Shown here piece by piece: positions 9,710 to 38,444 of a stretch of DNA of 64,000 nucleotides. The notes under the pieces are model-generated. The model did not search any database and had not been told where the DNA came from. It was given only the letters and a program-made list of their open reading frames with translations. The DNA is taken from positions 1,646,997-1,710,996 of the forward strand of contig NZ_CP012040.1 of the NCBI RefSeq assembly GCF_001050135.1, read 5' to 3'. The DNA is from Cyclobacterium amurskyense. Lineage in GTDB: Bacteria; Bacteroidota; Bacteroidia; Cytophagales; Cyclobacteriaceae. A program made the translations under genes and the position numbers. Each line of letters starts with the position of its first letter. The first letter of the stretch is position 1.

Positions 9710-9807
9710 AAAAACTGCTTGACGTTAAATTATCTTAAACATATAAATGCATAGCCCTTCAAAAAGAAAATATTTGGTATCTTAAGTTTAAAATATACAT
9801 CAAACCT

Positions 9808-11220: not shown

Positions 11221-11257
11221 AAATTCTTGTTTATCTATTTTATCAAAATCACATTGA

Positions 11258-12019: not shown

Positions 12020-12051
12020 TTTTACACCTCTTTATAAACAAAGTCCAACCA

Positions 12052-12987: not shown

Positions 12988-13730
12988 AAAAATATGGCTT
13001 AATCGGTTACCCACTTACCCATTCCTTTTCGAAAAAGTATTTCTCAGATAAATTCACCCGAGAGGGAACCTCAGACTGCCAATACGATCTGTATGAAATC
13101 GACAGCATCAAGTCTTTACCTGAAATAATTGCCTCTCAAGAAGAATTAATAGGTATCAATGTAACCATACCCTACAAGGAACAGGTAATCCCCTATTTGG
13201 ACAAGCTAGACCCTGCTTGCAAGGCTATCGGTGCGGTTAACTGTATCAAACTTACGTCTAATGGTCTGGTGGGCTATAACACCGATTATTATGGGTTCAA
13301 AACCTCATTGACCAATTGGCTGGGTGAAGAAAGGCCTCAAGCCTTGATTCTAGGTACAGGCGGTGCTTCGAAGGCGGTTTGCCAAGCACTTAAAGACCTG
13401 GAAATCCCCTTTTTGAAGGTATCTCGGAACCCAGATCCATCAGCCAAGGACACCATCAGTTACGATGAAATAAAGAAATCCCCTGATTATCTGGCTAAAT
13501 ATCCACTTATCATTAACAGCACCCCATTGGGTACTTTCCCCAATGTTTCGGCCATGCCTGACCTACCTATTGCAGAATTAAACAAAGGCAATTGGTATTA
13601 TGATCTGGTTTACAATCCCACAGAAACAGCCATGATGACGGCTGCGGCAAATATGGGTGCAAAAACTAAAAATGGGATTGAAATGCTTCACTTACAAGCT
13701 GAGGCTGCCTGGGATATCTGGAATAAATAA
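12984..13730 (+). CDS. aroE: shikimate dehydrogenase
   Basis: GLIGYPLTHSFSKKYF substrate-binding N-terminus, GTGGASKAV NADP motif, 248 aa. Confidence 0.75.
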   Translation: MKKYGLIGYPLTHSFSKKYFSDKFTREGTSDCQYDLYEIDSIKSLPEIIASQEELIGINVTIPYKEQVIPYLDKLDPACKAIGAVNCIKLTSNGLVGYNTDYYGFKTSLTNWLGEERPQALILGTGGASKAVCQALKDLEIPFLKVSRNPDPSAKDTISYDEIKKSPDYLAKYPLIINSTPLGTFPNVSAMPDLPIAELNKGNWYYDLVYNPTETAMMTAAANMGAKTKNGIEMLHLQAEAAWDIWNK

Positions 13731-13772
13731 GCCAAAACCACCACAAAAAAAGTCCAATAATGGACCATAAAA

Positions 13773-13800
13773 AAACCCATAGGCATTTGCCCATGGGTTT
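13773..13800. terminator. bidirectional hairpin terminator between convergent aroE and protease genes
   Basis: cccataggcatttgcccatggg hairpin flanked by an A-run upstream and a T-run downstream. Confidence 0.5.
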
Positions 13801-13825
13801 CATTTTACTTTTTATAATATCCTGC

Positions 13826-16318
13826 TCAGGAAGGATTTAATATTACATTAATCCTTTCTAGACAGTCTTCCAGATGAATTTTGCTCATACTGTCTGAGGT
13901 ACCTGGTATAGCACGTTTAATTTCAGCTTGAATCACTTTTAATGATGCCCTTGCCACAGAAGGTATATCTGACTGAGAGGCATTTAGTGAAGAAGCTGAC
14001 CTTCCACTAGCATCCTTAGTCATTAGTTCTTCAAGCTTTTCAATATGAGCCCTTTGAAGGCTTCTTCTGTTTATATCGATGGCTTTGCGAAAACTTAGTT
14101 CTTCCCAAATCCCCTTTCTTAAGTCAGTCATCAATTCCAATAAACCATAGGCTTCGGAACCATTTAAGGCTTCATTTTCAATTACTCGTCCCAATCTTCC
14201 CCAATCAAGTATAGCGTTCAATGTACCTACTTGCAATTTTCTAATTCTGTCCAGTATTCCAAAATCCTGGATCCTACTAGTAATGGCATCATCCGTAAGC
14301 CAATCCTGGGTCGTAAAAAGCTCTTTTTGGATAAAATCCATGGCTTCCTTTTGCTTGGCCTTGTCTACATGCGTATAAACAGCTTCCTCCTGACCAATGG
14401 CCTTATAAATCTCATAAACCCCACCAATATTCGTCCTCACATGTCCCATGTAACGATTGTATTGGGTCAAGACTTGTCCGTAAAGCTCTTCCAAGTCATC
14501 GTAATTTTTAAAGGGCTTGTCCAATTCACCTGTCCATTCGATTAGGTTCGGAACAATGCGTTTTAGATTTTGAATTCCATAAGTAGAAGCCTTCACAGCA
14601 TCATCACCTAAATCTTCACTTTGGGTACTGGGGTCATAAGAATTTCCCTGTCTGCCATAGCGATAGATTGGGTCTCCATTCTTTTCTACAATCCATTGGT
14701 CCAGGATTTCCTGCTCATCTTCCGGTGTTTCGGCTTCCAGTATTGGCTTGTATCCCCAGGAAATGGCGAATTTATCATAGGGCCCGACTTCTGGAAATAA
14801 GTGCACTCCCTTGTCTTCGGGCTGGGCGACATAATTAAAACGGGCATAATCCATCAAAGATGGAGCTGTACCATATTTCGCTGTAAAAGTAGCTGACCGC
14901 AATGAATCTACAGGATAGGCAAAAGAAGAAGCAAAGTTATGCGGTAAACCAAGTGTATGCCCCACTTCATGGGACGACACAAAACGGATCAACCTGCCCA
15001 TAACTTCATCGTCAAACTGCATACCCCTTGAATCCGGGTTGATGGCTGCAGTTTGTACAAAAAACCAATTGCGCAAAAGGTTCATCACATTGTGGTACCA
15101 ACCTATGTCCGATTCTATAATTTCACCAGATCTTGGATCAGAAACATGTGGCCCGTAAGCATTCTGAATATTGGAAGCAAAATACCTAATGACAGAATAC
15201 CTGGCATCTTCAGGATTCCAATCAGGATCCTCTTCGGGGCTTGGGGCTTCTTTGGCCGTGATGGCATTCTTAAATCCCGCTTCTTCAAAAGCTGCATTCC
15301 AATCCTCCACCCCGGCTTTGAGATAAGGCACCCACTTTGTAGGTGTGGCAGGATCTATATAATAAACGATTTGTTTTTTGGGCTCAACCAGTTCTCCCGC
15401 TTTGAATTTCTCAATATCCTCCTCCTTCACTTCCAATCTCCACCTATCAAGGTAAATTCTTCTACTTGCCTTATGGGCATCCAGTCCATAGTCAGTAACA
15501 CGGGTATTGAACCAACCCACCCTTTGGTCAGCTAATCTTTGTTTCATTGGAACCTCAGGAAGCAAGACCATGCTACTGTTCATCTCCACTGTGATAAGTC
15601 CAGTTGAAGTGTTAGATGGAGGTGCAGAGGCGGCATAAGTGAGCACATACCTCGCTTCAATATTAGTAGGATAAGGACTTATACGCTCTATATAAGACCT
15701 ATCTGTATCCAAACGCGTTACCTTGTATCCTTTTCGTCTGCTTTGTTGTAAGCCCAATGCCTGCACATCCTTTGAAAAGAGATCCGACACCTCAATCAAC
15801 CAGCCTTTTCCGTCTTTGCCTTTGGCTTCAACATCAAACCTATAAAGAATTGGTTCCAAGTTTGAATTTTTAACCGCCTGATAAATGGGAAGGGAATCTG
15901 CAGCTGTATTGGCATAAGAGACTACTTTCAACAAAATGTTTTTGTCTTTCTTTTCCCATTTAAGCATCTGCGTATTGGTGCGCTCTCCGCCATAGCCTAT
16001 TCCATTGGCTGTTTTGGCAATGGTAGTGACCATAAGCATTTCCTTACCCAGCGTTTCTTCTGGGATTTCGTAGTAGTATTTTTCATCCACCTTGTGGACT
16101 GTAAACAGACCAACTTTTGTTTCGGTGCTGTCTTTAATAATCTCTTTATAGGATTTCAAACCATCTTTGCTCTTCGCCGGTTTTTTTTCCGGTTCTTTGG
16201 TTTCTTGCTCATCCTTTTTTTTCTTCCTTCGCTGTGCCTCTGCCAAATCTGGAGAAATTAGATTCAGGCCAAAACTTACTAACAGCAAAATCAAAATGCT
16301 TGCTTTTGACTTTAACAT
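13826..16318 (-). CDS. secreted zinc-dependent metalloprotease (DUF5117/DUF4953-type)
   Basis: Signal peptide, HEVGHTLGLPHN zincin motif, 830 aa. Confidence 0.7.
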   Translation of the reverse strand: MLKSKASILILLLVSFGLNLISPDLAEAQRRKKKKDEQETKEPEKKPAKSKDGLKSYKEIIKDSTETKVGLFTVHKVDEKYYYEIPEETLGKEMLMVTTIAKTANGIGYGGERTNTQMLKWEKKDKNILLKVVSYANTAADSLPIYQAVKNSNLEPILYRFDVEAKGKDGKGWLIEVSDLFSKDVQALGLQQSRRKGYKVTRLDTDRSYIERISPYPTNIEARYVLTYAASAPPSNTSTGLITVEMNSSMVLLPEVPMKQRLADQRVGWFNTRVTDYGLDAHKASRRIYLDRWRLEVKEEDIEKFKAGELVEPKKQIVYYIDPATPTKWVPYLKAGVEDWNAAFEEAGFKNAITAKEAPSPEEDPDWNPEDARYSVIRYFASNIQNAYGPHVSDPRSGEIIESDIGWYHNVMNLLRNWFFVQTAAINPDSRGMQFDDEVMGRLIRFVSSHEVGHTLGLPHNFASSFAYPVDSLRSATFTAKYGTAPSLMDYARFNYVAQPEDKGVHLFPEVGPYDKFAISWGYKPILEAETPEDEQEILDQWIVEKNGDPIYRYGRQGNSYDPSTQSEDLGDDAVKASTYGIQNLKRIVPNLIEWTGELDKPFKNYDDLEELYGQVLTQYNRYMGHVRTNIGGVYEIYKAIGQEEAVYTHVDKAKQKEAMDFIQKELFTTQDWLTDDAITSRIQDFGILDRIRKLQVGTLNAILDWGRLGRVIENEALNGSEAYGLLELMTDLRKGIWEELSFRKAIDINRRSLQRAHIEKLEELMTKDASGRSASSLNASQSDIPSVARASLKVIQAEIKRAIPGTSDSMSKIHLEDCLERINVILNPS

Positions 16319-20051: not shown

Positions 20052-20279
20052 GTTGATATTTTATTCTGGTTAAACATAGCAGAAATGAGGGGACAAATCT
20101 CCTTTAGTTGTTTACCCAATAGCATTACGTACGATTAGCTATTTTTCATTTCCCTGCGCCGGCATTATCCGGATCAGGTGATATGGGTATGATCTCAGCC
20201 CGTTATATTAAGGCACCCCTAATGATCTTGCCACAAATGTAGCTGGTATTATTTAAAATGACAAATCACGACCTTTAGA

Positions 20280-27364: not shown

Positions 27365-27405
27365 TTATAAATAAAAACCCATTACACCCTTTAAGGTGAA
27401 TCAAA

Positions 27406-27439
27406 TAGGCCGGGACATTGTTCTGGCCTATTTTTTTTT
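27406..27439 (+). terminator. rho-independent terminator
   Basis: taggccgg..ctggccta hairpin followed by T9. Confidence 0.55.
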
Positions 27440-27843
27440 GGGGGGGGTGAAAAATCTAGTCTTCCCACAACAAATCGTCAATGCGAACCCTTTTTTGGGG
27501 AGGGGGTTGGCGGGGACAAGGGTTTAGCAGTCTCGCTTAATGTGGTTCCCCTTACAGTAATTGGTCCCTGAGCTTGTCGAAGGATCTTAAATCTGTAAAA
27601 ATGATCGATAACATTTGATGTACGATGCATAAGATTTTGTCAGCATTATTGCTAAAAACAAGCAACAATACCGCCAAAATCATGATGTATATATCTCCTT
27701 ACCATGGGCTGCACACATGGCTTTGATATTTAGGCCTTTCAGGCCTTTAGTGAAATAGGTTTGTTTCCGAAATTATTTTCAAGCCATTTAATTGAAAATC
27801 TACCAGATATTCAATAACTTATAACAAATAAAAACCTAAAGCC

Positions 27844-27963
27844 ATGAACATAGTTTGGATTGTTATTTTACTTATTGCAGCAGCGCTAGGAGGAGCATTC
27901 GTTTACCTGATGGTAAATAAGATTAAGGAAAGCCAAAAATCAACAAAAGATAAATCCCTTTAG
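27844..27963 (+). CDS. possible 39-aa membrane peptide (MNIVWIVILLIAAALGGAFVYLMVNKIKESQKSTKDKSL)
   Basis: Short ORF not in the track. A single hydrophobic helix plus a basic tail. No other support. Confidence 0.25.
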   Translation: MNIVWIVILLIAAALGGAFVYLMVNKIKESQKSTKDKSL

Positions 27964-28011
27964 GGAACTAGAAAGCACTGATAGTTCAGTACTCATGACA
28001 AATTAAAACGG

Positions 28012-28082
28012 AAAAGCGGTAAAGTCCTTTTGGGGCATTTACCGCCTTTTTTATTTTCAATTACTTGAAGAAGTAGTAAACT
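28012..28082. repeat. left copy of a ~70-nt direct repeat (terminator-like hairpin plus conserved tail)
   Basis: gcggtaaa..tttaccgc hairpin, then cttttttattttcaattacttgaagaagtagtaaact. A 47-nt stretch is identical to 38398-38444. Confidence 0.8.
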
Positions 28083-28142
28083 CGGGCTATGAGTTTTCCC
28101 TTAAGTAAATAACTATAAAAAGCAATACAATTACGGGATGTT

Positions 28143-28892
28143 TTACTTTTTTAATTTCTCAATTTCCATCCTTAAAAGGTTAATCTGATCCGATATTTCG
28201 CCAGAGGTTTCAGGAATTCGTTTATAGAACACATAGCGAATACGCCAAAGCTCATAGATTTGCTTCGCGTTAAAAACTTGGTCATCAATGCCTTTATGAT
28301 CCGCCCTTAGCACATAACCTTTATCTGTGCTAAAATATCGTCTTACTAAAATATCGGTATCGGTGACAACTATTACAGGGGTTCGATTATTGAGTTTCTT
28401 ATAGGCTGATTTTGGAACTAATTCACCCACTACAACATCGTTAGGATAGAATCCCACATCCTGATTCGCCATTTCCAAATCAGTAACGGTGTAAGCCCTA
28501 AATATTTTCTCATTACTGATGGGCAAGCTCATCACAGGCAAGTCTGCAATAAAGTTTTTCTTTGAATGGTGATTAAGATAGTCTGCAACACACTCGGGTA
28601 ATATTATAGGCACCTTTGTTAAGGCCGCAACCTCCATCTGGTCTGCATCGGTAGTTAAATTGGTATTAAATTTCAATAATTGATTTATGGTCAATTCCTT
28701 TGTTAGCAAATCATCAATGGGGATGCTAAAATAATTTGCAATTTTGATGATAGTATCTATTTTAGGCTCACTACGTTCTTCCTCATAAGCGCCTAAAGTA
28801 GCTCTTTTAAGGTCAAAAACCTCTGCAAATGCTTGTTGAGATAGCAACTTCAAACTTCGTATTTTTTTAATATTCCTTCCAAAAAAAGACAT
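28143..28892 (-). CDS. XRE-family HTH regulator with C-terminal LexA/CI-like (S24-like) domain
   Basis: N-terminal HTH (LSQQAFAEVFDLKRATLGAYEEERSEPKIDTIIKIANYF). The C-terminal β-rich region resembles the S24 fold but shows no clear Ser/Lys dyad. Divergent from the pspA operon. Confidence 0.55.
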   Translation of the reverse strand: MSFFGRNIKKIRSLKLLSQQAFAEVFDLKRATLGAYEEERSEPKIDTIIKIANYFSIPIDDLLTKELTINQLLKFNTNLTTDADQMEVAALTKVPIILPECVADYLNHHSKKNFIADLPVMSLPISNEKIFRAYTVTDLEMANQDVGFYPNDVVVGELVPKSAYKKLNNRTPVIVVTDTDILVRRYFSTDKGYVLRADHKGIDDQVFNAKQIYELWRIRYVFYKRIPETSGEISDQINLLRMEIEKLKK

Positions 28893-29135
28893 GTTTTGCT
28901 AATTTAATTTGCATAAATCCATTTTATTACTATATTTGTTCTAGCAATATTAGTTAAAAGCAGCGGTATTGCAAATTATTTTAGCCAATCATTCAGGGAC
29001 TTAGCCGTGACCTAACTTGCTAATTACAGGGAATTTTACTTGTATTATTCAGCAAAAAAATTAAAATTACTTCGGCTATATCTTCTTTTTTTAGATTGTC
29101 ATAAGCGAAATTGTTACTTAAGCAAACAATAAATT

Positions 29136-29531
29136 ATGGATAACTATTATAATCGTATCATAGAATTTTTATTGAAACTGGATGTTGATATTACAAAAGA
29201 AAATCCTGACGAAGGGATCTTGGTAATCCAGAAAGAGGACAACGGTATCAAGAACCTTATTGTAGGGATTGTACCCCCGGTTTTAATTTTAGAGCAGTAT
29301 ATCTTTAAAATCAAAAACAATAACAACTCGATCTACAAAAGTTTATTGCAAAAAAACAGAGACATTATTCATGGAGCATTTGTACTGGATGACGATGGCG
29401 ATAAAGTAATTTTTAGGGACACACTTCAAATAGAAAACCTAGATCTAAATGAGATAGAAGCTTCCTTAAATTCTCTAAGTCTCTTACTGAGTGAATACTC
29501 GGAACAAATCATTAAGTTTTCTAAATACTAA
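29136..29531 (+). CDS. YbjN-like (type-III-secretion-chaperone-fold) protein
   Basis: 131 aa. The pattern is typical of the YbjN/CesT-Tir-like 'sensory transduction regulator' family. First gene of the operon. Confidence 0.4.
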   Translation: MDNYYNRIIEFLLKLDVDITKENPDEGILVIQKEDNGIKNLIVGIVPPVLILEQYIFKIKNNNNSIYKSLLQKNRDIIHGAFVLDDDGDKVIFRDTLQIENLDLNEIEASLNSLSLLLSEYSEQIIKFSKY

Positions 29532-29543
29532 AATTCAAAAACA

Positions 29544-30257
29544 ATGAACTTCTTGAAACGAATATTTAAAATAGGACAGGCGGAAGCAAACGCTGCTATA
29601 GATAATATGGAAGATCCAATAAAACTAACCGAACAAGGCATTCGAGATTTAAAATTGGATTTAAATAAAAATTTAGATTCGCTTGCTCAAGTTAAAGCAT
29701 TGGCTATACGTGCAAGAAATGATAAAAAAGAGATGGATAGTTCGGCTGAAGAATACTACAATAAAGCCGTTATTATAATAAAAAAAGGGAAATCGGGAGA
29801 ATTAGCTTCTGAGGAAGCCGATCGTTTGGCAAAACAGGCATTGTTAAAAAAAGAGGAAGCTTCCAAAAAGGCTATCCAATATGCAAACGAAGCAAGCAAG
29901 TTGCAAGAATCCGTAAATCAACTTGATGTAAACATTCAAGAGCTAAAAAGCACCATTAATAACTGGGAAAATGAGCTAAAAACACTTAAGGCCAGAGTGA
30001 AGGTGAGCAATGCAAAAAATAGCTTGAACAAACAAATGGCCCAGTTGGACAGTACAGGAACCGTATCTATGCTGGAGCGAATGAAAGAAAAAGTAAACCA
30101 AGAAGAGGCACTGGCTGAGGCGTATGGCGAAATAGCCAATAAGAATCAAAGCATAGACAGCGAGTTAGATAAGGCCGCGAATATCAGTGAAGCAAATGCT
30201 GACAATGAGCTGAATGAATTAAAGAAAAATCTTGGCCTAAATGATAAAAACACATAA
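29544..30257 (+). CDS. pspA: PspA/IM30 (ESCRT-III-like) family protein
   Basis: N-terminal FLKRIFKIGQAEANAAIDNMEDPIKLTEQGIRDLKLDL aligns with E. coli PspA [26 protein letters not shown]. Coiled coil throughout, 237 aa. Confidence 0.8.
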   Translation: MNFLKRIFKIGQAEANAAIDNMEDPIKLTEQGIRDLKLDLNKNLDSLAQVKALAIRARNDKKEMDSSAEEYYNKAVIIIKKGKSGELASEEADRLAKQALLKKEEASKKAIQYANEASKLQESVNQLDVNIQELKSTINNWENELKTLKARVKVSNAKNSLNKQMAQLDSTGTVSMLERMKEKVNQEEALAEAYGEIANKNQSIDSELDKAANISEANADNELNELKKNLGLNDKNT

Positions 30258-30259
30258 AA

Positions 30260-30958
30260 GTGGAAAACATTATTGACATTATATTTTCGAGTGTAAATCT
30301 ACCATTAAGTATTTTTACCATTATTTTGATCCTCTATTGGTTATTAACCATGATTAGTGGGATTGACTTTGACTTAGATATTGATGTTGATGCTGGTTTG
30401 GATGCTAATACCGGTTTAGAAAGTAGCAATATTGATTTTGAAGATGTAGCGAACGCGGAATTCAACGAGAAAGATGTAGCGGGAAATAGGCGAATGCAAT
30501 TAAAATGGTGGCAGGTATTTTTGATTTATTTCAATTTTGTAGGCTTGCCCTTTATGTTTACTTTCACAAGTTTTGTATTTGCCTGGTGGTTTATCACTTT
30601 GACTGTAACAACTATAACACATAGCTATTCAAACAGTATAGGCTTTATTTTTATGCTGGCCAGTTTTATCCCAGCACTAATTTTCACGAAAGTTTTCACA
30701 AGTCCATTCAAAGGTTTTTTCAAGGGTTTTAATAAAAACGGAGATAAGGCCATAGATTTTATCGGAAGAAAAGGCACAAGTTTATCTAGTATTGAAAAGG
30801 ATAAATTAGGCAATGCAGAATTTATCATCGATGGCAACCCTATGTCTGTTTACATCAAATCTTTAAATGGAGAAAAAATCAGTTTTAGAGAAATAGTTCT
30901 CATTATCAAAGAGTCAGAAGACAAAAGTTTTTATTACGCACAAGTATATAACGACTAA
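30260..30958 (+). CDS. YqiJ/NfeD-like membrane protein with C-terminal OB-fold
   Basis: N-terminal TM, acidic linker, two TM helices, C-terminal β-rich domain. Immediately precedes flotillin, as in yqiJK operons. Confidence 0.55.
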   Translation: MENIIDIIFSSVNLPLSIFTIILILYWLLTMISGIDFDLDIDVDAGLDANTGLESSNIDFEDVANAEFNEKDVAGNRRMQLKWWQVFLIYFNFVGLPFMFTFTSFVFAWWFITLTVTTITHSYSNSIGFIFMLASFIPALIFTKVFTSPFKGFFKGFNKNGDKAIDFIGRKGTSLSSIEKDKLGNAEFIIDGNPMSVYIKSLNGEKISFREIVLIIKESEDKSFYYAQVYND

Positions 30959-30967
30959 TTAACAACT

Positions 30968-33034
30968 ATGACAGAGATTCCATCATTATTGGCAATAGGA
31001 ATAGCGTTAATCGTATTCCTAATTATAATTTTCTTTGCAATTATTGCATTGTTCTATAAAAAGGTTCGCCAAGGCGAGGCCTTAATCCGTACCGGTTTTG
31101 GCGGAATCCAAATCGCCACCGATAAGGGCATGTATGTGGTTCCTTTATTTCACAAGTTAGAAATCATGGATATTTCTGTAAAGAAAATCCAGATCGAAAG
31201 ACTAGGATCTGAAGGCTTGGTATGTAAAGACAATATGCGAGCGGACATTAAAGTAGCATTTTTTGTTCGTGTCAACAACGACATAGAATTTATCAAAAGA
31301 GTAGCACAGACAATTGGTGCGGAGCGGGCTTCAAAAATCGAAACCCTTGAAGACTTGTTCGAGGCCAAATTTTCCGAAGCCTTAAAAACCGTGGGAAAAA
31401 AGTTTGATTTCATTGAACTGTATGAAGCCAGACGGGAGTTTAGGGATGAGATCGTAGATATAATAGGGACAGATCTAAACGGATATACCCTTGAAGATTG
31501 TGCGATCGATTTTTTAGAGCAGACTCCGGTAAATTATTTAAGGGCTGACAATATTCTAGATGCAGAAGGAATAAAGAAAATTACTGAACTGACAGCAGAG
31601 CAAAACAAAAAAGCTAACTTCATTAAACGTGATGAGGAAAAAGTCATACGAAAGCAAGATGTGGAGGCACGAGAAGCCATCTTGGAATTAGACCGGCAAT
31701 TGGCAGAAAAGGAGGAATCCCAACGTAGAGAGATTGCCAACATTAAAGCCAGAGAACAAGCGGACATCCTAAAGGTGGCCGAAGAAGAGCGATTAAAATC
31801 TGAAACTGCTAGAATAGCCACTGAGGAGAAAGTAAAGGTGGCTGAAGAAAATATGCAACGTCAGATCATTGTTGCAGAAAAGAACAAGGAACGAACCAAC
31901 GCTGTAGAAACGGAGCGAGTTGAAAAAGACAGAATGCTTGAGGCAACCGAAAGAGAACGTATAGTAACTCTTGCTCAAATTGAAAAGGAAAAAGTTGTTG
32001 AAGTTGAAAAGAAAAATATCCAAGATGTTATCCGGGACCGAGTGGCGCTTGAAAAAGGTGTGGTTCAGGAACAGGAGAACATGAAGGATATTGAGGCCTT
32101 TAAAACAGCAGATAGGGATAAAAAGGTGAAAATCACAATTGCAGAAGGTGTTGCAGAGGAAGAGCTTATTAAAGTAATTAAGCAAGCGGAATCCAAAAAG
32201 GAGGCCATGAAGCAACATGCCGAGGAAATTAACATTGAGGCACAGGCGAAAAAAGAAGCAAGTGCCAAAGAGGCAGAAGGTAGAAAAATCCTGGCAGAAG
32301 CAACCGCGAAAGAAGAAGCGACCATTGGATTGTCAGAGGCACAGGTTATGCATGCCAAAGCAGAAGCAAATGAACGCCAAGGAATTGTAGAGGCATTAAT
32401 AATTGAGAAAAAAGCCTTGGCTGAGGCCAGAGGAATTGAGGCTAATGCAGAAGCAAAACGCAAAGACGGATTGGCAGAAGCAGACGTTATTAAAGAAAAA
32501 GCCCTAGCCGATGCAGCCGGAATTGAAGAGAAGGCCAACGCAATGAAGAAATTAGATGGTGTGGGCAAAGAGCACGAAGAGTTTAAGCTTAAGTTGGATA
32601 AAGAATTACAGGTTGATTTGGCAGAAATCAATATTCAAAAAGCAATTGCAGATGCGCAGGCACAAGTGATTGGAGATGCCTTAAAAACTTCCAAAATTGA
32701 CATCGTGGGAGGAGAAACAATGTTTTTTGAGCAAATTATTGGTCAAATCACTAAAGCAAAAGGCTTTGATAGAATGGTAAATAACAGCACAAACATCCAG
32801 GAAATTAAGCAAGCCTTACTTGGTGACGGCAGTGGTAATGAGGGAGAATTATTGTCACGGATAAAAGATTTTGCTGAAAGGTATAACATCTCAAGTGAGG
32901 ATATCAAAAACGTCACAATTGCCAATTTATTGATGACTATGCAAAATCAGGCTACAGATAAAAATGAACAAAACGTGATTGGCAACCTTCTGAGTTTAGC
33001 TAAAGGCCTAGGGATTTCAGGAAATAAATTGTAA
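30968..33034 (+). CDS. flotillin / SPFH (band-7) family protein, YqiK-like
   Basis: N-terminal TM, SPFH domain (VRQGEALIRTGFGG...), a long E/A/K-rich coiled-coil region, 688 aa. Confidence 0.8.
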   Translation: MTEIPSLLAIGIALIVFLIIIFFAIIALFYKKVRQGEALIRTGFGGIQIATDKGMYVVPLFHKLEIMDISVKKIQIERLGSEGLVCKDNMRADIKVAFFVRVNNDIEFIKRVAQTIGAERASKIETLEDLFEAKFSEALKTVGKKFDFIELYEARREFRDEIVDIIGTDLNGYTLEDCAIDFLEQTPVNYLRADNILDAEGIKKITELTAEQNKKANFIKRDEEKVIRKQDVEAREAILELDRQLAEKEESQRREIANIKAREQADILKVAEEERLKSETARIATEEKVKVAEENMQRQIIVAEKNKERTNAVETERVEKDRMLEATERERIVTLAQIEKEKVVEVEKKNIQDVIRDRVALEKGVVQEQENMKDIEAFKTADRDKKVKITIAEGVAEEELIKVIKQAESKKEAMKQHAEEINIEAQAKKEASAKEAEGRKILAEATAKEEATIGLSEAQVMHAKAEANERQGIVEALIIEKKALAEARGIEANAEAKRKDGLAEADVIKEKALADAAGIEEKANAMKKLDGVGKEHEEFKLKLDKELQVDLAEINIQKAIADAQAQVIGDALKTSKIDIVGGETMFFEQIIGQITKAKGFDRMVNNSTNIQEIKQALLGDGSGNEGELLSRIKDFAERYNISSEDIKNVTIANLLMTMQNQATDKNEQNVIGNLLSLAKGLGISGNKL

Positions 33035-33043
33035 AACTTATCG

Positions 33044-33093
33044 CGTTCAATGTCTTACTGCAAAAGCTTAATAAGTGCATTGAACGTATTTTT
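33044..33093 (+). terminator. hairpin terminator or attenuator between flotillin and the giant ATPase gene
   Basis: cgttcaatg...cattgaacg 9-bp stem with a long loop, followed by tattttt. Confidence 0.35.
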
Positions 33094-33198
33094 CTATTCC
33101 AAAAAGTTATTCTTAAAACAACACGCAAATGTTAGCATTGAGCAGCTCATGTGTAAATTATTCACGTAAGTTACGCACACCTATATAGCACAACTCCA

Positions 33199-36100
33199 AT
33201 GACTGAACCTAATAAAACGGAACAAAAGCAAATTTTAGATGGTGGCACATATGAAATCATTAGAAACAGGTTACAAAAGCATAAACAAGACCTTCAAAAT
33301 CGGTTAAACCAACTAAATGAGGATCGTAAAGCTGTTTTTGGTGCTTTAGAAACAAAACTAATCGCTAATGATAGAATTTCCACAGAAAATAATTGTATCG
33401 CACGTGATATCGTTTCTTTTGGGAATACTTGTGTGTTTGGCTATAATGTGCATTTTGGCTTACGTACAGATATAAAGCTCAATGACGTATTTAGCGTATA
33501 CAGTTTTACCAATAACAGGTTTGAAGCCATAGGGCTAGATTTTATAGAAGACGTTCAGTTTCAAGCAGATTTTGATAATCTATACAAATACTACCGAAAT
33601 ACCATCTTTGCGAGATTTGCCAAAATAGGCAATTTTCTATACATGATTTTTCAATTGAGTGAAAGTGTCACTGATATTAAGGCATTTAAATGGCTTATCA
33701 AAGATGGAAAACTGGTATATGTAGACAACAGAAGCGATCATGAATACAAGTTCCCTGCCCAATATGAGTTTAAATGGCTAGAAGTTACTCGTGATATGCA
33801 CCGGTATGGGGTGCATTCACATGTTTCAATATTGGATAAAGTATTTGTAGAGGCAATAGGAGGAGATCTTACCATAAAAATAGAGGACAATACAGAAGAT
33901 GGTAAAGGGGTCTATGATGAACCTGTAGATTACCCAGATCAAACGCTAGACGATGCACAGTACAAATATGCAGATTTAGGAAATCTTATTCTTATTGATA
34001 TAAAACCATTTCAAGAAGATTCCAGATTTTTTGTATACAATCACAAGGTACAGGAAGTGCAAAAAATTGACAGTTTACGAGAAGCTGCGGTACTTCTACC
34101 TGATGACCAAGGAATTATTTTTCCGACAGGTTATTATTTGCAAACCGGAGAATACCATGTTTTCGATAATAGCATCCCCAATGTAAAGTTTGTTTCGCGA
34201 ATTGCTTCTCCCAATGGTGAAGATTATATGTTCGTGTTCTATTCACCCTCGGAAGGTTTGTATATTCTAATGAGTTATAATGTGATCACTCAACAGATTG
34301 TCACGCCTATTATTTGTAATGGTTACACCATTTTACAAAATGGAGAACTTAGTTACTTTAAGGGTGAAGGAGAGCAAACCAAGCATCATGTGGTACAAAT
34401 TTGGCAAACTCCTTATTTAAAAGGTGATTTCATCCCAAGTAAACACACGGACTCGCTATTGTATAAAATCGGAAATAAAGACATTGTCAAAGCCATGGCT
34501 GAAAGCAATGCCTTGATCAATTTACTCAACAAAGATGATAATTATGAGGGCCTATATGAGGATGTTTCCAAGGCCGCAAAAGACCTATTGGACTCGTATT
34601 ATTGGATTAAGGAACCGGATACACAGGATCTTTCTGCACCTCTAAATGAAATTAGTGATGCAGCCAATGCTGCTATAGATGAATTTACAAAGGTTGTTCA
34701 ATTAAAAAAATCGGCTGCAAGCCAATCAAAGGCTTTGCAAAATAAAGCAGATGAACTTTTTGTTATAATAAAAAGCACCTCATTTAATAGCATCAATGAT
34801 TTTGTATCAATGTTAACCCAGCTTCGTGGCTTAAGGGGCGAAACCATTGAATTAAACGATGTTCGCTATGTAAATACCGACTACACCAAGGAACTTGAAA
34901 ATACGATTGCCGAGTATTCCGACAATATTGCTCAGCAATGTGTAGCATTTTTACTTAATGATGATGCATTGGCGCCTTATAAGTTGCAAGTTGAGGAAAA
35001 GAAAATGGCTTTGGAAAAAGTCACTAAAGTAATCGAAGCCAAGCAACTTGAGGAAGAGGTAAATCAAATTGCAAGGGATTTAGAGTTATTGATTGAAATT
35101 GTATCCAATTTAGAAATTGAAGACACATCCCAATCAACTAAAATAATCGATCATATTTCCTTGATTTTTGCCACGTTAAATCAGCTCAAAGCCGCAATAA
35201 AAAACAAACGCAAATCTCTGGGCAGCAAAGAAGCCATTGCTGATTTTTCTGCGCAAATAAAATTGGTGGACCAAAGCATTATCAACTATTTGGATATTGC
35301 CGATACCCCCGAAAAATGTGATGAATACCAAACCAAAGTATCTATTCAACTGGAAGAATTGGAAGGTAAATTTGCAGATTATGATGCGTTTATTCCCAAA
35401 ATAATTGAGAAACGGGAGGAAGTCCATGCGGCTTTTGACAATAAAAAAACGGGCTTAATTGAGCGACGAAATAAAAAATCAATTGCTTTAAAAACTGCAA
35501 CAGCACGCATTTTAAAAGGAGTTGCCAAAAAAGCAGAAACCTTAAAATCCACTGCAGAAATAAATGGTTATTTCGCATCCGACTTAATGATCAACAAGGT
35601 CCGTGACATCATCGATCAGCTAAATGAATTGGATGAAAGTGGGAATGCAGAAGAAGTAGCCACTTCTTTAAAGGTTGCCAAGGAAGATGCCTTACGTAAA
35701 TTAAAAGACAAGCAGGAGCTGTTTGAAGATGGCGAAAACGTTATTAAACTGGGCAAGTACAAATTTGGTGTAAATAAACAGCCCCTAGATATAACCATCG
35801 TTTTCAAAGACAATCACCTCAATTATCATCTAACAGGGACAGATTTCTATCAAAAACTGACCAACAAAGTACTGGTAAACAGCCAGAAATATTGGGATCA
35901 AGAATACCCTTCTGAAAACATCACAGTATATAGGGGGAGTTACCTAGCTTTTAAACTGTTTAAGGAAACACCCTGGGACCAATTGGCGGATGCCTCCCAG
36001 GAAAACTTGGTTCAATTGGTAAAAAAGGCAAGCAGTGCCAACTACAATGAAGGGTATACAAAAGGGGTACACGATGAGGATGCGGCAAAAATTTTACTAA

Positions 36101-38067
36101 CCCTAGTGAATACGCATAAAGACTTGGGTTTACTGCGTTACTCACCTGCCATAAGAGCCCATGCACAATACAGTTGGTATTCATTTACTGAAAAGGAACG
36201 CCTGCATCTTAATCGGATGATAAAAGCGGCTGGATCTGTTTTGGAAGTATTCCCTTATTCTAAAGAGTTTAATTACCTGATAGATGAATTGCAGCAAAAA
36301 ATCCATAGGCTTATTTCTGAAACTCAGCTATTTTCAAGTGCTGAAATTAATGTTATTTCAAATTATTTGTTTGAAGAATTGCAGGGTAATGATGCCTTTG
36401 AAGTAAGTTCAGAAGCAGAGAAATTAAGGCAAGCCTTTAATAATGTCATGAAAGCAAAAAATGCTGATTTACGTTTTAAAGAAGCCATTGACAATACCAG
36501 TACATTTCATGAGAAAATAAAACTCGCAAGGCAATGGGTTGCTGCATTCATCAATCAGGAGCATCCAAAGAATGCCCGTTATATTGATGAGATCGTTTGT
36601 AATTGCTTGTTTGATCAACCCATTGCAAAAAAGAAAATGATTTCGCCAAATGCTGTCATTCATAATTTAGCGGGAAACCACCATACCATTATTGAAGGAG
36701 AATTTCATTTTAATTATCATGATTTTGTGGCTACTTTAACTCATTTCACAAATGAGGAGGTAGCCGCTTACCAAGCCTTTAAAAAGGCAAAAACCGATAT
36801 TACCCTTCAGTTAAAAGAGCAGTTAAAATTGGAAGAGTATAAACCTCAGGTTCTGACTTCCTTTGTGCGTAACAAACTAATCGATCAGGTTTATTTGCCA
36901 TTATTTGGAGAGAACCTGTCCAAACAACTTGGTACCGTGGGGAACAATAGTCGGACAGATAGAATGGGGCTTTTGCTTTTGATTTCGCCTCCAGGCTACG
37001 GTAAAACCACTTTGATGGAATACATTGCCAACCGATTGGGCTTAGTGTTCATGAAAATTAACGGGCCAGCCATAGGCCATGAGGTTACCTCGGTAGACCC
37101 TGAAGCAGCCACAAATAGTGCAGCAAAAGAGGAGTTAAAAAAGCTGAATTTAGCCTTTGAAATGGGAAATAACGTAATGTTGTATTTAGACGATATTCAA
37201 CATTGCCATCCAGAGTTTTTACAAAAATTCATATCCCTTTCCGATGGCACCAGAAAAATTGAAGGAATATATAACGGAAAGCCACGTACCTATGACCTTC
37301 GAGGCAAAAAGTTCTGTGTAATAATGGCAGGAAACCCCTATACAGAGCGTGGGGCAAAATTCCAGGTTCCAGACATGCTATCCAACCGAGCCGATATTTA
37401 TAATCTTGGGGACATTATAGGCGATTCAGACCATCAGTTTAACCTTAGCTTAATAGAAAATTCTTTAACTAGCAATCCTGTATTGAATCAACTGAGGAAT
37501 AAATATCTTGAAGATGTTTATACCTTGTTAAATCGGGTTGAAAACGAAACACAGGACGGTGTACTTCATGGTAATCACACCAATCAAGAAATTCAGGATT
37601 ACTTAAGCGTAATCCAAAAGGTTTTAAAGATAAGAGACACTGTACTCAAAGTAAACCAAGCTTATATAGAAAGCGCTGCTAAGGATGATGCCTACAGGAC
37701 TGAACCCCCATTTAAACTACAAGGTTCTTATCGAGACATGAATAAACTGGTATCCAAAGTGGTTCCTATTATGAACAATAAGGAGTTACAAAATCTTTTG
37801 TTGTCGCATTACGAAAGTGAGGCACAAACGCTTACAAGTTCCGCCGAAGCCAACTTATTAAAATACAAAGAACTAACTGGCACAATTACACCAATAGAAC
37901 AAGCTAGATGGGGTGAAATAAAAACCACTTTTATTAAAAACAACAAGTTAAGAGGCTTAGGAAATCAAGATGAAATGGCACAGGTAGTGCTGCAAATGGT
38001 CAATTTCAGTGATAACCTGGAAGGCATAAAAGAAGTGCTAGAACGCGCCATTAAGGCGAAAGGGTAA
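33199..38067 (+). CDS. 1622-aa protein with single C-terminal MoxR/dynein-like AAA+ ATPase domain and large N-terminal region of unknown function
   Basis: Walker A LLLISPPGYGKTTLME, Walker B VMLYLDD, sensor-1 CVIMAGNP, arginine-finger/sensor region DMLSNRADIYN. The ~1200 N-terminal residues have no recognisable motif and several coiled-coil stretches. Confidence 0.65.
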   Translation: MTEPNKTEQKQILDGGTYEIIRNRLQKHKQDLQNRLNQLNEDRKAVFGALETKLIANDRISTENNCIARDIVSFGNTCVFGYNVHFGLRTDIKLNDVFSVYSFTNNRFEAIGLDFIEDVQFQADFDNLYKYYRNTIFARFAKIGNFLYMIFQLSESVTDIKAFKWLIKDGKLVYVDNRSDHEYKFPAQYEFKWLEVTRDMHRYGVHSHVSILDKVFVEAIGGDLTIKIEDNTEDGKGVYDEPVDYPDQTLDDAQYKYADLGNLILIDIKPFQEDSRFFVYNHKVQEVQKIDSLREAAVLLPDDQGIIFPTGYYLQTGEYHVFDNSIPNVKFVSRIASPNGEDYMFVFYSPSEGLYILMSYNVITQQIVTPIICNGYTILQNGELSYFKGEGEQTKHHVVQIWQTPYLKGDFIPSKHTDSLLYKIGNKDIVKAMAESNALINLLNKDDNYEGLYEDVSKAAKDLLDSYYWIKEPDTQDLSAPLNEISDAANAAIDEFTKVVQLKKSAASQSKALQNKADELFVIIKSTSFNSINDFVSMLTQLRGLRGETIELNDVRYVNTDYTKELENTIAEYSDNIAQQCVAFLLNDDALAPYKLQVEEKKMALEKVTKVIEAKQLEEEVNQIARDLELLIEIVSNLEIEDTSQSTKIIDHISLIFATLNQLKAAIKNKRKSLGSKEAIADFSAQIKLVDQSIINYLDIADTPEKCDEYQTKVSIQLEELEGKFADYDAFIPKIIEKREEVHAAFDNKKTGLIERRNKKSIALKTATARILKGVAKKAETLKSTAEINGYFASDLMINKVRDIIDQLNELDESGNAEEVATSLKVAKEDALRKLKDKQELFEDGENVIKLGKYKFGVNKQPLDITIVFKDNHLNYHLTGTDFYQKLTNKVLVNSQKYWDQEYPSENITVYRGSYLAFKLFKETPWDQLADASQENLVQLVKKASSANYNEGYTKGVHDEDAAKILLTLVNTHKDLGLLRYSPAIRAHAQYSWYSFTEKERLHLNRMIKAAGSVLEVFPYSKEFNYLIDELQQKIHRLISETQLFSSAEINVISNYLFEELQGNDAFEVSSEAEKLRQAFNNVMKAKNADLRFKEAIDNTSTFHEKIKLARQWVAAFINQEHPKNARYIDEIVCNCLFDQPIAKKKMISPNAVIHNLAGNHHTIIEGEFHFNYHDFVATLTHFTNEEVAAYQAFKKAKTDITLQLKEQLKLEEYKPQVLTSFVRNKLIDQVYLPLFGENLSKQLGTVGNNSRTDRMGLLLLISPPGYGKTTLMEYIANRLGLVFMKINGPAIGHEVTSVDPEAATNSAAKEELKKLNLAFEMGNNVMLYLDDIQHCHPEFLQKFISLSDGTRKIEGIYNGKPRTYDLRGKKFCVIMAGNPYTERGAKFQVPDMLSNRADIYNLGDIIGDSDHQFNLSLIENSLTSNPVLNQLRNKYLEDVYTLLNRVENETQDGVLHGNHTNQEIQDYLSVIQKVLKIRDTVLKVNQAYIESAAKDDAYRTEPPFKLQGSYRDMNKLVSKVVPIMNNKELQNLLLSHYESEAQTLTSSAEANLLKYKELTGTITPIEQARWGEIKTTFIKNNKLRGLGNQDEMAQVVLQMVNFSDNLEGIKEVLERAIKAKG

Positions 38068-38371
38068 ACTGAAATTACTACTTTGCTGAGGCTGAAAGAA
38101 CCTAAATACAACAAAAAACGGTAATTTTCTTCTAAAAGGTTTTTAACTGTTTTCACTCCACTCAGTTCAAACCAATAACTCACTTTTGACAAGGCACAAG
38201 GCATGTTAAAACTTTTCAGAAATGTGCAACAAACATAGATGATTCACAAGTCGAGGCTCCTACTGAGAAACTGAACCTTGATCAACCCCTTCCGAGGTTG
38301 AGGTAATGATGAATTATTCAACGGCTATGGGGTTTTCAACTATGGTTAATATAATTGAAGCCCAAACATAA

Positions 38372-38444
38372 AAAAGGCGGTAAATATCCCTAAGGGACAT
38401 TTACCGCCTTTTTTATTTTCAATTACTTGAAGAAGTAGTAAACT
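38372..38444. repeat. right copy of the direct repeat
   Basis: ggcggtaaat..atttaccgcc hairpin with compensatory stem changes relative to the left copy, then an identical 47-nt tail. Abuts the lspA stop. Confidence 0.8.

Follow-up and report, generated by a model that had tools for sequence, protein, structure and literature searches.

What does a giant AAA+ protein act on when its gene lies beside those for a flotillin and PspA? The question is raised by a six-gene cassette in a 64,000-nucleotide stretch of the Cyclobacterium amurskyense genome (NZ_CP012040.1, positions 1,646,997 to 1,710,996; hereafter the window). A first, sequence-only reading had proposed a self-contained membrane-remodelling system, in which the ATPase acts on a PspA/flotillin scaffold as a bacterial counterpart of the ESCRT-III/Vps4 pairing. 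The analysis described here supports that interpretation in part.

A conserved six-gene cassette

The coordinates and lengths of the six open reading frames (Table 1) agreed exactly with those of the sequence-only reading, as did the tight run of four genes (spacers of 12, 2 and 9 bp), the hairpin and 164-bp gap ahead of the ATPase gene, and the divergent XRE-type regulator. Domain searches bore out the PspA/IM30 and flotillin assignments, and two calls needed minor correction. The 131-aa protein, described as YbjN-like, instead matches the CesT_Tir_1 family over its full length (188 bits against a cut-off of 27), with CesT (E=0.002) and YbjN (E=0.005) both under their cut-offs. The AAA+ module is not the sole recognisable domain of the giant protein, in which DUF3686 and DUF7902 also match. 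The 237-aa PspA protein matches solved Vipp1/PspA structures over its full length (E=1e-11) and begins with an amphipathic-looking helix (MNFLKRIFKIG). The cassette is syntenic within the genus and has housekeeping genes on its flanks (lspA and ileS, both identified by Pfam, and a GMC oxidoreductase gene); on the 3' side the module ends at a strong hairpin between the ATPase gene and the convergent lspA.

Table 1. Features of the cassette, in window coordinates
Feature	Position	Strand	Basis or remark
Divergent regulator, 249 aa	28143..28892	-	HTH_3 E=1.7e-10
Candidate operator/promoter in divergent spacer	28893..28992	.	conserved; function inferred
CesT/Tir-like chaperone-fold protein, 131 aa (Pfam CesT_Tir_1)	29136..29531	+	PF22550 E=8e-56
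PspA/IM30 (ESCRT-III superfamily), 237 aa	29544..30257	+	PF04012 (PspA_IM30) E=8e-36
YqiJ/YuaF-like membrane protein, 232 aa	30260..30958	+	sub-threshold but consistent matches
Long flotillin (SPFH/Band-7), 688 aa	30968..33034	+	Band_7 E=6.6e-14
Stem-loop, then U-rich tract	33043..33098	+	between flotillin and ATPase genes; candidate partial terminator/attenuator
Giant cytoplasmic AAA+ protein, 1622 aa	33199..38067	+	DUF3686, DUF7902 and AAA matches
Propeller-like beta domain, residues 53-403 (core of DUF3686)	33355..34407	+	
MoxR-like AAA+ ATPase module, residues ~1250-1450	36946..37548	+	
Strong hairpin, 20-bp stem, flanking A and T runs	38371..38413	.	terminator scan; between ATPase gene and convergent lspA

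We compared 15 loci from five phyla (Bacteroidota, Planctomycetota, Pseudomonadota, Actinomycetota and Deinococcota), six of them from Bacteroidota, the window included. The genes for the small membrane protein, the flotillin and the giant ATPase are adjacent and in the same order in all 15, with the flotillin gene directly 5' of the ATPase gene. The CesT-PspA pair and the repressor occur only in the six Bacteroidota loci, where the CesT-like gene always lies immediately 5' of pspA. The full cassette was found with differing flanks in Cyclobacterium, Dokdonia, Tenacibaculum, Echinicola and Hymenobacter, and the locus of Dokdonia sp. Hel_I_63 corresponds to the window gene for gene. Because the cassette is kept amid differing flanks and the three-gene core recurs throughout the sample, the genes of the module have not come together by chance; in the Bacteroidota loci the six form a conserved, self-contained and membrane-associated module, in line with the first reading.

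Outside that phylum the neighbourhood of the core varies. Upstream of it, the Pseudomonas plasmid pQBR103 has another PspA dyad (YjfI-PspA), accompanied by polyamine genes, genes for a PLD-like hydrolase and TelA adjoin it in Vibrio, and a pspA gene is absent from the fetched sequence in 8 of the 15 loci. Since the flotillin gene is invariant beside the ATPase gene and PspA is so often missing, flotillin is the constant partner and PspA a lineage-specific addition. This pattern makes the SPFH scaffold the more likely primary client of the ATPase.

The cassette is genuine and has been known computationally since 2024, when Ravi et al. (mSystems; PMC11237479, section 19 and Table S3) described the same operon by comparative genomics, with Dokdonia donghaensis ANH61663.1 as its prototype. 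The Dokdonia layout in their Table S3 is identical, including the divergent cHTH+protease gene; genes, order, orientation and the proposed ESCRT-analogous role in membrane dynamics all coincide, and we find no essential difference, the window being the Cyclobacterium orthologue. The sequence-only reading had pointed, correctly if tentatively, to such surveys of Psp neighbourhoods, and the Vps4 analogy that it put forward was already drawn in PMC11237479. It had also known of no experimental characterisation, and our literature search likewise found no experimental work. To that description we add the MoxR-like structure of the ATPase, the finding that its invariable neighbour across the 15-locus sample is the flotillin and not PspA, a regulator without a catalytic dyad, a conserved control region and the hairpin between the flotillin and ATPase genes.

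The giant ATPase and its membrane partners

The 1622-aa protein, for which no transmembrane segment is predicted, matches DUF3686 at residues 31–468 (E=7e-177), DUF7902 at residues 589–673 (E=3e-26) and AAA at residues 1259–1351 (E=2e-7); the first two are domains of unknown function. Its predicted layout begins with a helix (15–47), the propeller-like beta domain and a spectrin-like helical rod (420–841) that includes DUF7902, and continues through a small beta unit and helical domain (~848–1240) to the AAA+ module and a helical C-terminal domain. The AAA+ module contains a Walker A motif (GYGKTT, 1266–1271), a Walker B motif (DD, 1331–1332), a sensor 1 residue (N1379) and an arginine (Arg1397), all of which are invariant among 89 sequences, and a beta-hairpin (1354–1365) precedes sensor 1.

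By structure the module is MoxR/dynein/midasin-like, with CbbQ and NorQ as its top structural matches. Members of this clade are protein-complex remodellers, and canonical MoxR ATPases act with a VWA-domain partner. Compared with the MoxR remodellers (CbbQ/CbbO, NorQ/NorD, RavA/ViaA) and with midasin and dynein, the giant protein differs in having a single AAA+ module placed after a 1200-residue propeller-rod-helical extension, and its Walker A region is classical-clade-like by sequence. A domain search found no VWA/MIDAS partner among the cassette proteins, which counts against a remodelling role, as does the Walker B motif, DD rather than DE, with which hydrolysis may be slow or regulatory.

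The 232-aa protein had been described as YqiJ/NfeD-like, and the signals for that identity are weak and below threshold in every test, but mutually consistent. It gave no Pfam hit in the window's copy, and its orthologues gave sub-threshold matches to YqiJ_N (3e-4) and NfeD (0.0078), the Hymenobacter orthologue being annotated DUF1449. The best PDB match of a seven-sequence profile was the soluble domain of YuaF (2k14, E=0.13, residues 172–227), and an hhalign comparison with E. coli YqiJ was colinear (E=0.0068). A hydropathy scan predicted transmembrane segments at residues 4–39, about 94–116 and 124–148; an acidic, D/E-rich linker follows the N-terminal segment, and the C-terminus appears to form an NfeD-like beta domain. 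In E. coli, yqiJ occupies the corresponding position 5' of yqiK, and yuaF-floT of B. subtilis likewise has, immediately ahead of the flotillin gene, a gene for a small membrane protein whose C-terminus is NfeD-like. The cassette protein is too divergent to reach the Pfam YqiJ or NfeD thresholds, and the E. coli locus lacks the giant ATPase, PspA and the CesT-like gene.

The flotillin itself is homologous to E. coli YqiK (29% identity over 456 aa, E=6e-45) and longer (688 against 553 aa). It comprises an N-terminal membrane anchor, the SPFH domain (32–176), a helical region of ~350 aa rich in E, A and K, and a variable C-terminal tail that is absent in Pseudomonas and Deinococcus. A docking element common to all of the ATPase-linked flotillins was sought, and none was found, which counts against remodelling of the flotillin by the ATPase.

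The divergent regulator and intergenic elements

The regulator gene is divergent in all six Bacteroidota loci, and its product combines an N-terminal XRE/Cro-type HTH (residues 5–66) with a C-terminal S24/LexA-like domain. A profile of five orthologues matched HTH repressors in the PDB and, at residues 163–224, LexA (3k2z, E=0.007); hhalign against E. coli LexA gave E=0.0015, and in Hymenobacter the orthologue carries the annotation 'LexA family'. These matches lend weak support to the S24 fold first proposed. The domain lacks the LexA-type catalytic dyad: LexA Ser119 aligns with Ala142 (Ser or Thr in the orthologues) and Lys156 with an invariant arginine (Arg184). A repressor without that dyad would therefore probably sense a ligand or partner rather than cleave itself.

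Within the divergent spacer, ~95 nt can be aligned across Cyclobacterium, Dokdonia, Tenacibaculum and Echinicola, and the remaining spacer cannot. A 23-nt inverted repeat (arms 28891–28913 and 28970–28992) encloses a near-palindrome, CTAGCAATATTAG, and Bacteroidota-type promoter elements (TTTG ... TAnnTTTG) can be read on both strands. The exact control-region motif showed no enrichment within the window. We infer that the conserved segment is a candidate operator/promoter, although overlapping promoters could equally explain its conservation.

The stem-loop 3' of the flotillin gene (33043–33087) has a folding energy of -17.4 kcal/mol (z -4.1), and none of 200 shuffled sequences folded as well. 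A stable structure (z <= -2.6) occupies the same position in 7 of 10 other loci, from several phyla. It would probably reduce expression of the ATPase relative to the scaffold proteins, and so help to set their stoichiometry. It could also stop transcription completely, leaving the ATPase gene as a transcription unit of its own; this would count against a joint role with the scaffold.

The likely client of the ATPase

We favour, with middling confidence, the explanation that the cassette is the form taken in Bacteroidota by a widespread membrane-scaffold system, in which the ATPase remodels a flotillin lattice. The ancient core would consist of the YqiJ/YuaF-type (NfeD-like) protein, a long YqiK-type flotillin and a cytoplasmic MoxR-type AAA+ protein of ~1600–1800 aa. 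Aided by its NfeD-like partner, the flotillin would assemble on the cytoplasmic side of the inner membrane into an SPFH cage or microdomain; the ATPase would oligomerise through its AAA+ module, grip the lattice or proteins within it by its propeller and rod arms, and remodel or take apart the lattice through ATP hydrolysis. In Bacteroidota, the CesT/Tir-like protein and PspA would have been added upstream of this core, the former probably holding PspA unpolymerised until its delivery to the flotillin platform, where PspA would seal or reshape damaged membrane. In B. subtilis, an SPFH protein, YdjI, is reported to bring PspA from the same operon (pspA-ydjGHI, or samGHI) to the membrane (PMC8581546), an experimental precedent for such a pairing. 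YdjI is soluble, unlike the membrane-anchored long flotillin here, and its operon includes neither an AAA+ ATPase nor a CesT-like protein. The HTH/S24-like repressor would control the cassette through the palindromic control region, and the system would probably be inducible, responding to envelope stress.

At the inner membrane, the AAA+ protease FtsH is enclosed by SPFH cages of HflK/C, which regulate it, and the flotillin might similarly corral the giant ATPase for the extraction, unfolding or complex maturation of other membrane-associated proteins, leaving the scaffold itself untouched. The MoxR-type proteins CbbQ and NorQ do mature or remodel third-party complexes (Rubisco and nitric-oxide reductase, respectively), and the lack of a conserved docking tail on the flotillin fits such an arrangement. 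We nonetheless regard it as unlikely: FtsH is a membrane-anchored protease of the classical AAA clade, whereas the giant protein is soluble, MoxR-like and devoid of protease and VWA domains, and no candidate client gene is kept beside the core across phyla.

We are similarly doubtful that the ATPase mainly disassembles or recycles the PspA polymer, with flotillin only as a platform. A PspA polymer-former and an AAA+ ATPase are encoded together in the six Bacteroidota cassettes, an ATP-driven cycle is conceivable, and the PspA dyad on pQBR103 is a second, unrelated one beside the same core. Snf7/Vps4-style ATP-dependent remodelling was suggested in PMC11237479, and a 2025 review states that bacteria seem to lack a Vps4-like regulator of PspA, so the niche is open. 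However, the giant ATPase belongs to a different AAA+ clade from Vps4, lacks an MIT domain, is four times larger, and occurs with flotillin where PspA is missing; the likeness is at best one of analogy, not homology.

An anti-phage or abortive-infection island, in which a repressor-controlled, membrane-acting system is triggered by infection, seems improbable. The regulator's HTH resembles those of phage and toxin-antitoxin repressors and the PADLOC control-protein, RmrA and CapH models, the family is patchy and found on megaplasmids, and PLD-like and TelA genes are linked to the core in Vibrio. The ter clusters have been associated with phage resistance. Against this, PADLOC returned only trivial P-loop or coiled-coil matches for the five structural proteins, PHROGs gave no relevant match, no relative emerged when 2.9 million viral contigs were scanned by motif, the cassette has housekeeping genes on its flanks and is syntenic within the genus, and the ~65% identity of the giant protein across Flavobacteriaceae suggests vertical inheritance.

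Very improbable is a DNA-repair ATPase separated by a terminator from unrelated membrane genes. It would agree with the labels given by Pfam ('ATPase involved in DNA repair', DUF3686) and NCBI ('DNA repair ATPase'), with the hairpin and gap, and with RuvB_N matches that are weak (E about 1e-4) and confined to the Walker A region. Against it, the searches placed the protein in no characterised unrelated family, the name has been propagated on a DUF for which our literature search found no paper (DUF3686 or PF12458), the domain searches revealed nothing of nuclease, SMC/Rad50, helicase or DNA-binding type, the structural neighbours are not repair ATPases, and the flotillin gene adjoins in every locus of the five phyla.

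Two further observations count for remodelling of a flotillin lattice: the membrane-stress genes beside the core on pQBR103 and in Vibrio are independent additions, and the contextual inference in PMC11237479 was reached independently.

Linkage of flotillin and a giant ATPase across phyla

The six ORFs of the cassette lie exactly where the sequence-only reading had placed them, with spacers of 12, 2 and 9 bp among the first four plus-strand genes and a 164-bp gap 3' of the flotillin gene. The cassette sits among chromosomal housekeeping genes, with a GMC oxidoreductase pair upstream and convergent lspA and ileS genes downstream. Its closest public sequence is that of Cyclobacterium qasimii M12-11B, with protein identity of 91–98% over all six genes and both flanks. 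In that genome the flotillin and giant ATPase genes are each split into two ORFs; since identity is 95–98% on both sides of each break, the splits are probably frameshift errors in the draft assembly and not pseudogenes.

Coordinates of features in the window and in comparison loci (L handles) fetched from other genomes
Feature	Sequence	Coordinates	Strand	Size
Divergent regulator ORF	window	28143-28892	-	249 aa
CesT/Tir-like ORF	window	29136-29531	+	131 aa
PspA ORF	window	29544-30257	+	237 aa
YqiJ/YuaF/NfeD-like ORF (probable)	window	30260-30958	+	232 aa
Flotillin ORF	window	30968-33034	+	688 aa
Stem-loop 3' of flotillin	window	33043-33087
Giant ATPase ORF	window	33199-38067	+	1622 aa
ORF-poor stretch	window	27365-28142		~780 bp
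GMC-oxidoreductase terminator	window	27403-27433
Hydrophobic mini-ORF	window	27844-27963		39 aa
Small terminator-like hairpin	window	28032-28048
TPP riboswitch (RF00059)	window	20134-20230	-
Low-GC stretch	window	60001-62000
Split flotillin gene	L001, C. qasimii M12-11B	7771-9836
Split giant ATPase gene	L001, C. qasimii M12-11B	9953-14868
Inserted ORF	L004, Tenacibaculum	4662-5024		120 aa
Inserted GIY-YIG gene	L004, Tenacibaculum	8103-8393		96 aa
YjfI-PspA to giant ATPase run	L007, P. fluorescens SBW25 pQBR103	1019-14223
PLD-like and TelA genes	L016, Vibrio campbellii	12849-14627
ORFs size-matched to PLD-like and TelA genes	L014, Photobacterium	12866-14662

The operon is real and biologically attractive, but in the form proposed earlier it has already been described. 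The paper by Ravi, Anantharaman, Aravind, Gennaro et al. (mSystems 2024; preprint 2020; PMC11237479) describes exactly this operon and draws the Snf7/Vps4 parallel, so neither the operon nor the Vps4 analogy is a new idea; it also notes that other lineages have shortened flotillin/YqiJ(/AAA+) operons and that Proteobacteria have a PLD add-on, and its Table S3 gives a Dokdonia donghaensis neighbourhood that includes a divergent ‘cHTH+Protease’ gene. A 2025 review lists Band-7 partners with ‘undetermined roles’ and says of a Vps4-like ATPase that it ‘appears absent in bacteria’; our literature search turned up no experimental work on the giant ATPase. What is added here to Ravi et al. 2024 is refinement, not discovery: the structure-based, predicted assignment of the ATPase to a MoxR-like class, the division into a three-gene core (with flotillin as the constant partner) and lineage-specific accessories, a regulator that has lost its catalytic dyad, and a conserved control region together with an inter-gene hairpin.

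The loci compared were taken from contigs encoding homologues and from plasmid records; a scan of genome contigs with a single protein gave only two loci. Five further Bacteroidota loci (C. qasimii, Dokdonia, Tenacibaculum, Echinicola and a Hymenobacter plasmid) carry the full six-gene cassette with its divergent regulator, amid unrelated flanking genes. Outside Bacteroidota only three genes travel together, encoding an ORF of 144–224 aa, a flotillin of 643–731 aa and the giant ATPase; such loci were found in two Planctomycetota and in Pseudomonas fluorescens (plasmid pQBR103), Streptomyces, Deinococcus, Proteus, Nonomuraea, Photobacterium, Halomonas and Vibrio. Co-occurrence of all six genes, which the earlier reading had put forward as a check, holds for six Bacteroidota loci and is replaced elsewhere by the three-gene core, and the CesT_Tir_1 protein and its PspA are confined to those six among the 15 loci. 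In all 15, spanning five phyla, the flotillin gene lies immediately upstream of the giant ATPase gene, and flotillin is the constant partner of the giant ATPase in this sample. Several of the PLSDB ‘plasmid’ records used (L011, NZ_OL790811.1; L013, NZ_LT559118.1; L014–L016) are 1.7–11.9 Mb in length, including those of Proteus mirabilis H63 (4.08 Mb) and Nonomuraea (11.85 Mb); these are evidently chromosomes or chromids, and ‘plasmid-borne’ should not be read into those matches.

The genes that accompany the core differ between lineages. On pQBR103 a different PspA dyad, YjfI-PspA, and polyamine-metabolism genes are found upstream of the core; here a PspA system is joined to the flotillin-ATPase core for a second time, independently. 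Vibrio and Photobacterium carry two extra genes 3' of the ATPase: in V. campbellii a PLDc_2 gene (PLD-like hydrolase, E = 2e-30) abuts the ATPase stop codon and a TelA gene (E = 2e-78) also follows, while the Photobacterium counterparts are judged by size and position. Judging by the pQBR103 dyad and the Vibrio additions, various membrane or envelope-stress modules have been recruited by the core on repeated occasions. Unlike the PLD gene, the TelA linkage was not noticed in the available portion of PMC11237479.

On the megaplasmid pQBR103 the genes form one co-directional run of YjfI, PspA, rhomboid, DUF2491, DUF350, DUF1190 and glutathionylspermidine synthase, with no break before the small ORF, the SPFH gene and the giant ATPase. 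In Tenacibaculum an ORF with no Pfam match separates pspA from the YqiJ-like gene, and a gene for a GIY-YIG protein separates the flotillin and ATPase genes; these insertions show that the cassette can be interrupted at the very junctions that have the longest spacers.

Domains and predicted structure of the giant ATPase

The giant protein had been described as having an AAA+ ATPase as its only recognisable domain, which proved incorrect: Pfam also matches DUF3686 (residues 31–468, E = 7e-177) and DUF7902 (residues 589–673, E = 3e-26), in addition to AAA and AAA_5 at residues 1259–1384. In Pfam searches of the inter-domain segments at E ≤ 10, DUF7902 was the only useful match, and no transmembrane segment is predicted. 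The family comprises 935 clusters at 50% identity with a constant architecture, and its full-length members are 1600–1900 aa long.

The protein was modelled as two pieces, using 89-sequence alignments that covered Bacteroidota and Planctomycetota (residues 1–860, pLDDT 84; residues 841–1622, pLDDT 86 and pTM 0.70). The N-terminal piece is made up of three parts, among them a helix at residues 15–47. The modelled AAA+ core is structurally closest to MoxR-clade members, and by this comparison the giant ATPase is MoxR-like rather than Vps4-like; it has neither the MIT domain that Vps4 carries at its N-terminus nor a AAA core of the classical clade. Sequence searches had pointed to a classical-clade (p97-like) ATPase, an assignment overruled by the structure comparison, and the similarity to p97/VAT is limited to the Walker A-beta2 region. 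A VWA/MIDAS partner was found neither among the six proteins (Pfam) nor among the annotated neighbours of distant loci. Foldseek matches to coat-like proteins with a propeller-plus-helical arrangement (COPI, IFT-A, Nup) had TM-scores of only 0.08–0.13, and a protocoatomer relationship was not accepted.

Walker A (GYGKTT, residues 1266–1271), the Walker B aspartates (1331–1332), the sensor-1 Asn1379-Pro, Arg1397 and several lid arginines are invariant in 89 of 89 sequences, which argues for a working nucleotide-dependent machine. The Walker B motif (LDDIQH, residues 1331–1335; AAA+ module at window 36946-37548) is unusual, in that Asp-Asp replaces the usual Asp-Glu in every one of the 89 homologues; it resembles the DnaA-type Walker B (hhhhDDIQ).

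Accessory proteins, regulator and control region

The PspA/IM30 identity of the 237-aa protein stands (PF04012, residues 4–229, E = 8e-36, 124.1 bits against a cut-off of 33.9), as does the flotillin identity of the 688-aa protein (Band_7, E = 6.6e-14, 52.8 bits against 23.6). The former matches solved Vipp1/PspA chains in the PDB over essentially its whole length (residues 3–225, E = 1e-11), and its N-terminus (MNFLKRIFKIG) is amphipathic-looking. The flotillin has a transmembrane segment at residues 1–35 that forms an N-terminal membrane anchor, a helical region of ~350 residues rich in E, A and K (by composition, residues 200–550), and homology to E. coli YqiK (29% identity over 456 aa, E = 6e-45); Pfam searches of its C-terminal half at E ≤ 10 gave nothing useful. 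A C-terminal docking tail specific to ATPase-linked flotillins was considered and dropped, as the tail is variable and is missing in Pseudomonas and Deinococcus. The 131-aa protein, which had been called YbjN-like, matches CesT_Tir_1 along nearly its full length (PF22550, residues 1–130 of 131, E = 8e-56, 188 bits against a cut-off of 27) and falls below the cut-off of the YbjN family itself (PF10722, 17.5 bits against 22), so that the label is retained at the level of the superfamily or clan and not of the family.

The 232-aa protein, with predicted transmembrane segments and an acidic linker, has no Pfam match up to E = 10. Several weak results nevertheless agree: the best PDB match of a seven-orthologue profile is the YuaF soluble domain (2k14, residues 172–227, E = 0.13); hhalign gives a colinear alignment with E. 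coli YqiJ (E = 0.0068); orthologues show sub-threshold matches to YqiJ_N (3e-4, 21.3 bits against 23) and NfeD (0.0078); the Hymenobacter orthologue is annotated DUF1449; and the gene lies 9 bp upstream of the flotillin gene, the same placing as yqiJ before yqiK in E. coli. Because of this agreement the protein is probably YqiJ/YuaF/NfeD-like. An ORF of 144–252 aa occupies the position upstream of flotillin in all 15 loci, recognised by sequence match in nine and by position alone in the other six.

The divergent regulator had been read as an XRE/S24 protein. Its HTH is clear (HTH_3, E = 1.7e-10; a five-orthologue profile also matches HTH repressors), and an S24-like fold is weakly supported by matches to LexA (residues 163–224, E = 0.007) and, by hhalign, to E. 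coli LexA (E = 0.0015); Pfam gave no Peptidase_S24 match, nor anything useful for the C-terminal half at E ≤ 10. The Ser-Lys catalytic dyad of self-cleaving LexA/S24 repressors is absent: in the hhalign alignment Ala142, a Ser or Thr in the orthologues, takes the place of the nucleophile Ser119, and Arg184, which is invariant in the five orthologues, that of the general base Lys156. Given these substitutions, the C-terminal domain is S24-like but very probably does not self-cleave in this organism; a role in dimerisation or sensing is more likely. An alignment by eye had set Ser119 opposite Glu140 (‘LEM’ versus ‘GDSM’), two residues from the hhalign position; the window protein is without the serine either way.

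Conservation across four genera is limited to the first ~95 nt of the divergent spacer; the remainder cannot be aligned. This block contains a 23-nt inverted repeat around a near-palindrome and, read from the sequence, Bacteroidota-type −33/−7 promoter elements on both strands, and is a plausible candidate operator and promoter. The exact motif CTAA-N5-TTAG is not enriched within the window and the window's own copy carries a mismatch, so the block is kept only as a conserved region. At the other end of the four-gene run, the stem-loop that opens the 164-bp gap is more stable than any of 200 shuffles (dG −17.4 kcal/mol, z = −4.1) and is followed by a U-rich tract. Since a stable stem-loop also lies directly 3' of the flotillin stop codon in seven of ten other loci (z ≤ −2.6), it suggests that ATPase expression may be attenuated relative to the scaffold.

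Between the GMC-oxidoreductase terminator and the 3' end of the regulator gene lies a stretch with no ORF longer than 58 aa; it contains the mini-ORF and small hairpin listed in the table, has an equivalent in C. qasimii, and matched no Rfam family. Unrelated to the module, a TPP riboswitch (73.2 bits, E = 1.7e-12) precedes a minus-strand gene to the left. The low-GC stretch (0.277, against a window mean of ~0.39) could be horizontally acquired or intergenic-rich DNA.

Possible functions of the cassette

SPFH proteins such as HflK/C, flotillin and stomatin form large cages or domes on membranes, and NfeD partners bind SPFH C-termini; PspA and Vipp1 polymerise, have the ESCRT-III fold and act in membrane stabilisation or repair, and MoxR-clade ATPases remodel protein complexes. 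In B. subtilis, PspA is reported to be linked to the membrane by an SPFH protein (PMC8581546). The ATPase would oligomerise via its AAA+ ring, its six propeller-on-rod arms would grip the flotillin/NfeD lattice or proteins bound within it, and the lattice would be remodelled with ATP; in Bacteroidota, the CesT-like protein would chaperone PspA to the flotillin platform and the pseudo-protease repressor would gate expression. We give this whole picture an even chance. That the cassette is one membrane-associated functional module stands on much firmer ground than this specific mechanism, since every locus examined showed the linkage. Our more pointed proposal, that the giant protein serves specifically to remodel or disassemble SPFH cages with ATP and that this cycle is coupled in Bacteroidota to the PspA/ESCRT-III polymer, is tentative.

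An arrangement like that of HflKC-FtsH, in which the ATPase acts on third-party clients, seems unlikely. It is likewise improbable that PspA is the main client of the ATPase, as the proposed analogy with ESCRT-III/Vps4 implied: PspA and the AAA+ protein do share a cassette in Bacteroidota, but the reading is weakened by the constancy of flotillin as partner and by the MoxR-like class of the modelled ATPase. A defence island is very doubtful, since in PADLOC no structural component matched a defence model (the regulator matched only as a generic HTH, and there were marginal P-loop matches, such as IetA, E = 3.7e-4 over 30 residues) and PHROGs and viral-contig searches, which bear equally on a phage reading, were negative. 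We give almost no credence to a true DNA-repair ATPase: although ‘DNA repair ATPase’ is the usual name of the homologues and recurs among those named, the annotation is without domain support here, since domain searches of the giant protein returned only DUF3686, DUF7902 and generic AAA matches and no nuclease, SMC/Rad50, helicase or DNA-binding domain, its RuvB matches are confined to the P-loop/Walker A, and we found no published mention of DUF3686 or PF12458. Placement in such a well-characterised, unrelated family had been named as grounds for abandoning a membrane role, and none was found.

If the giant ATPase does remodel SPFH cages, it would be the first regulator known to spend energy on SPFH microdomain dynamics, with conservation in at least five phyla, and its Bacteroidota version would be an independently arisen analogue of ESCRT-III/Vps4. 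The operon bears on how SPFH/flotillin assemblies are taken apart and on how PspA (ESCRT-III) polymers are controlled without Vps4; on genomic grounds it is the strongest candidate for an ATP-driven answer to SPFH disassembly, PspA dynamics or both. It is present in the genetically tractable Proteus mirabilis and Vibrio campbellii, on the P. fluorescens plasmid pQBR103, and in flavobacteria.
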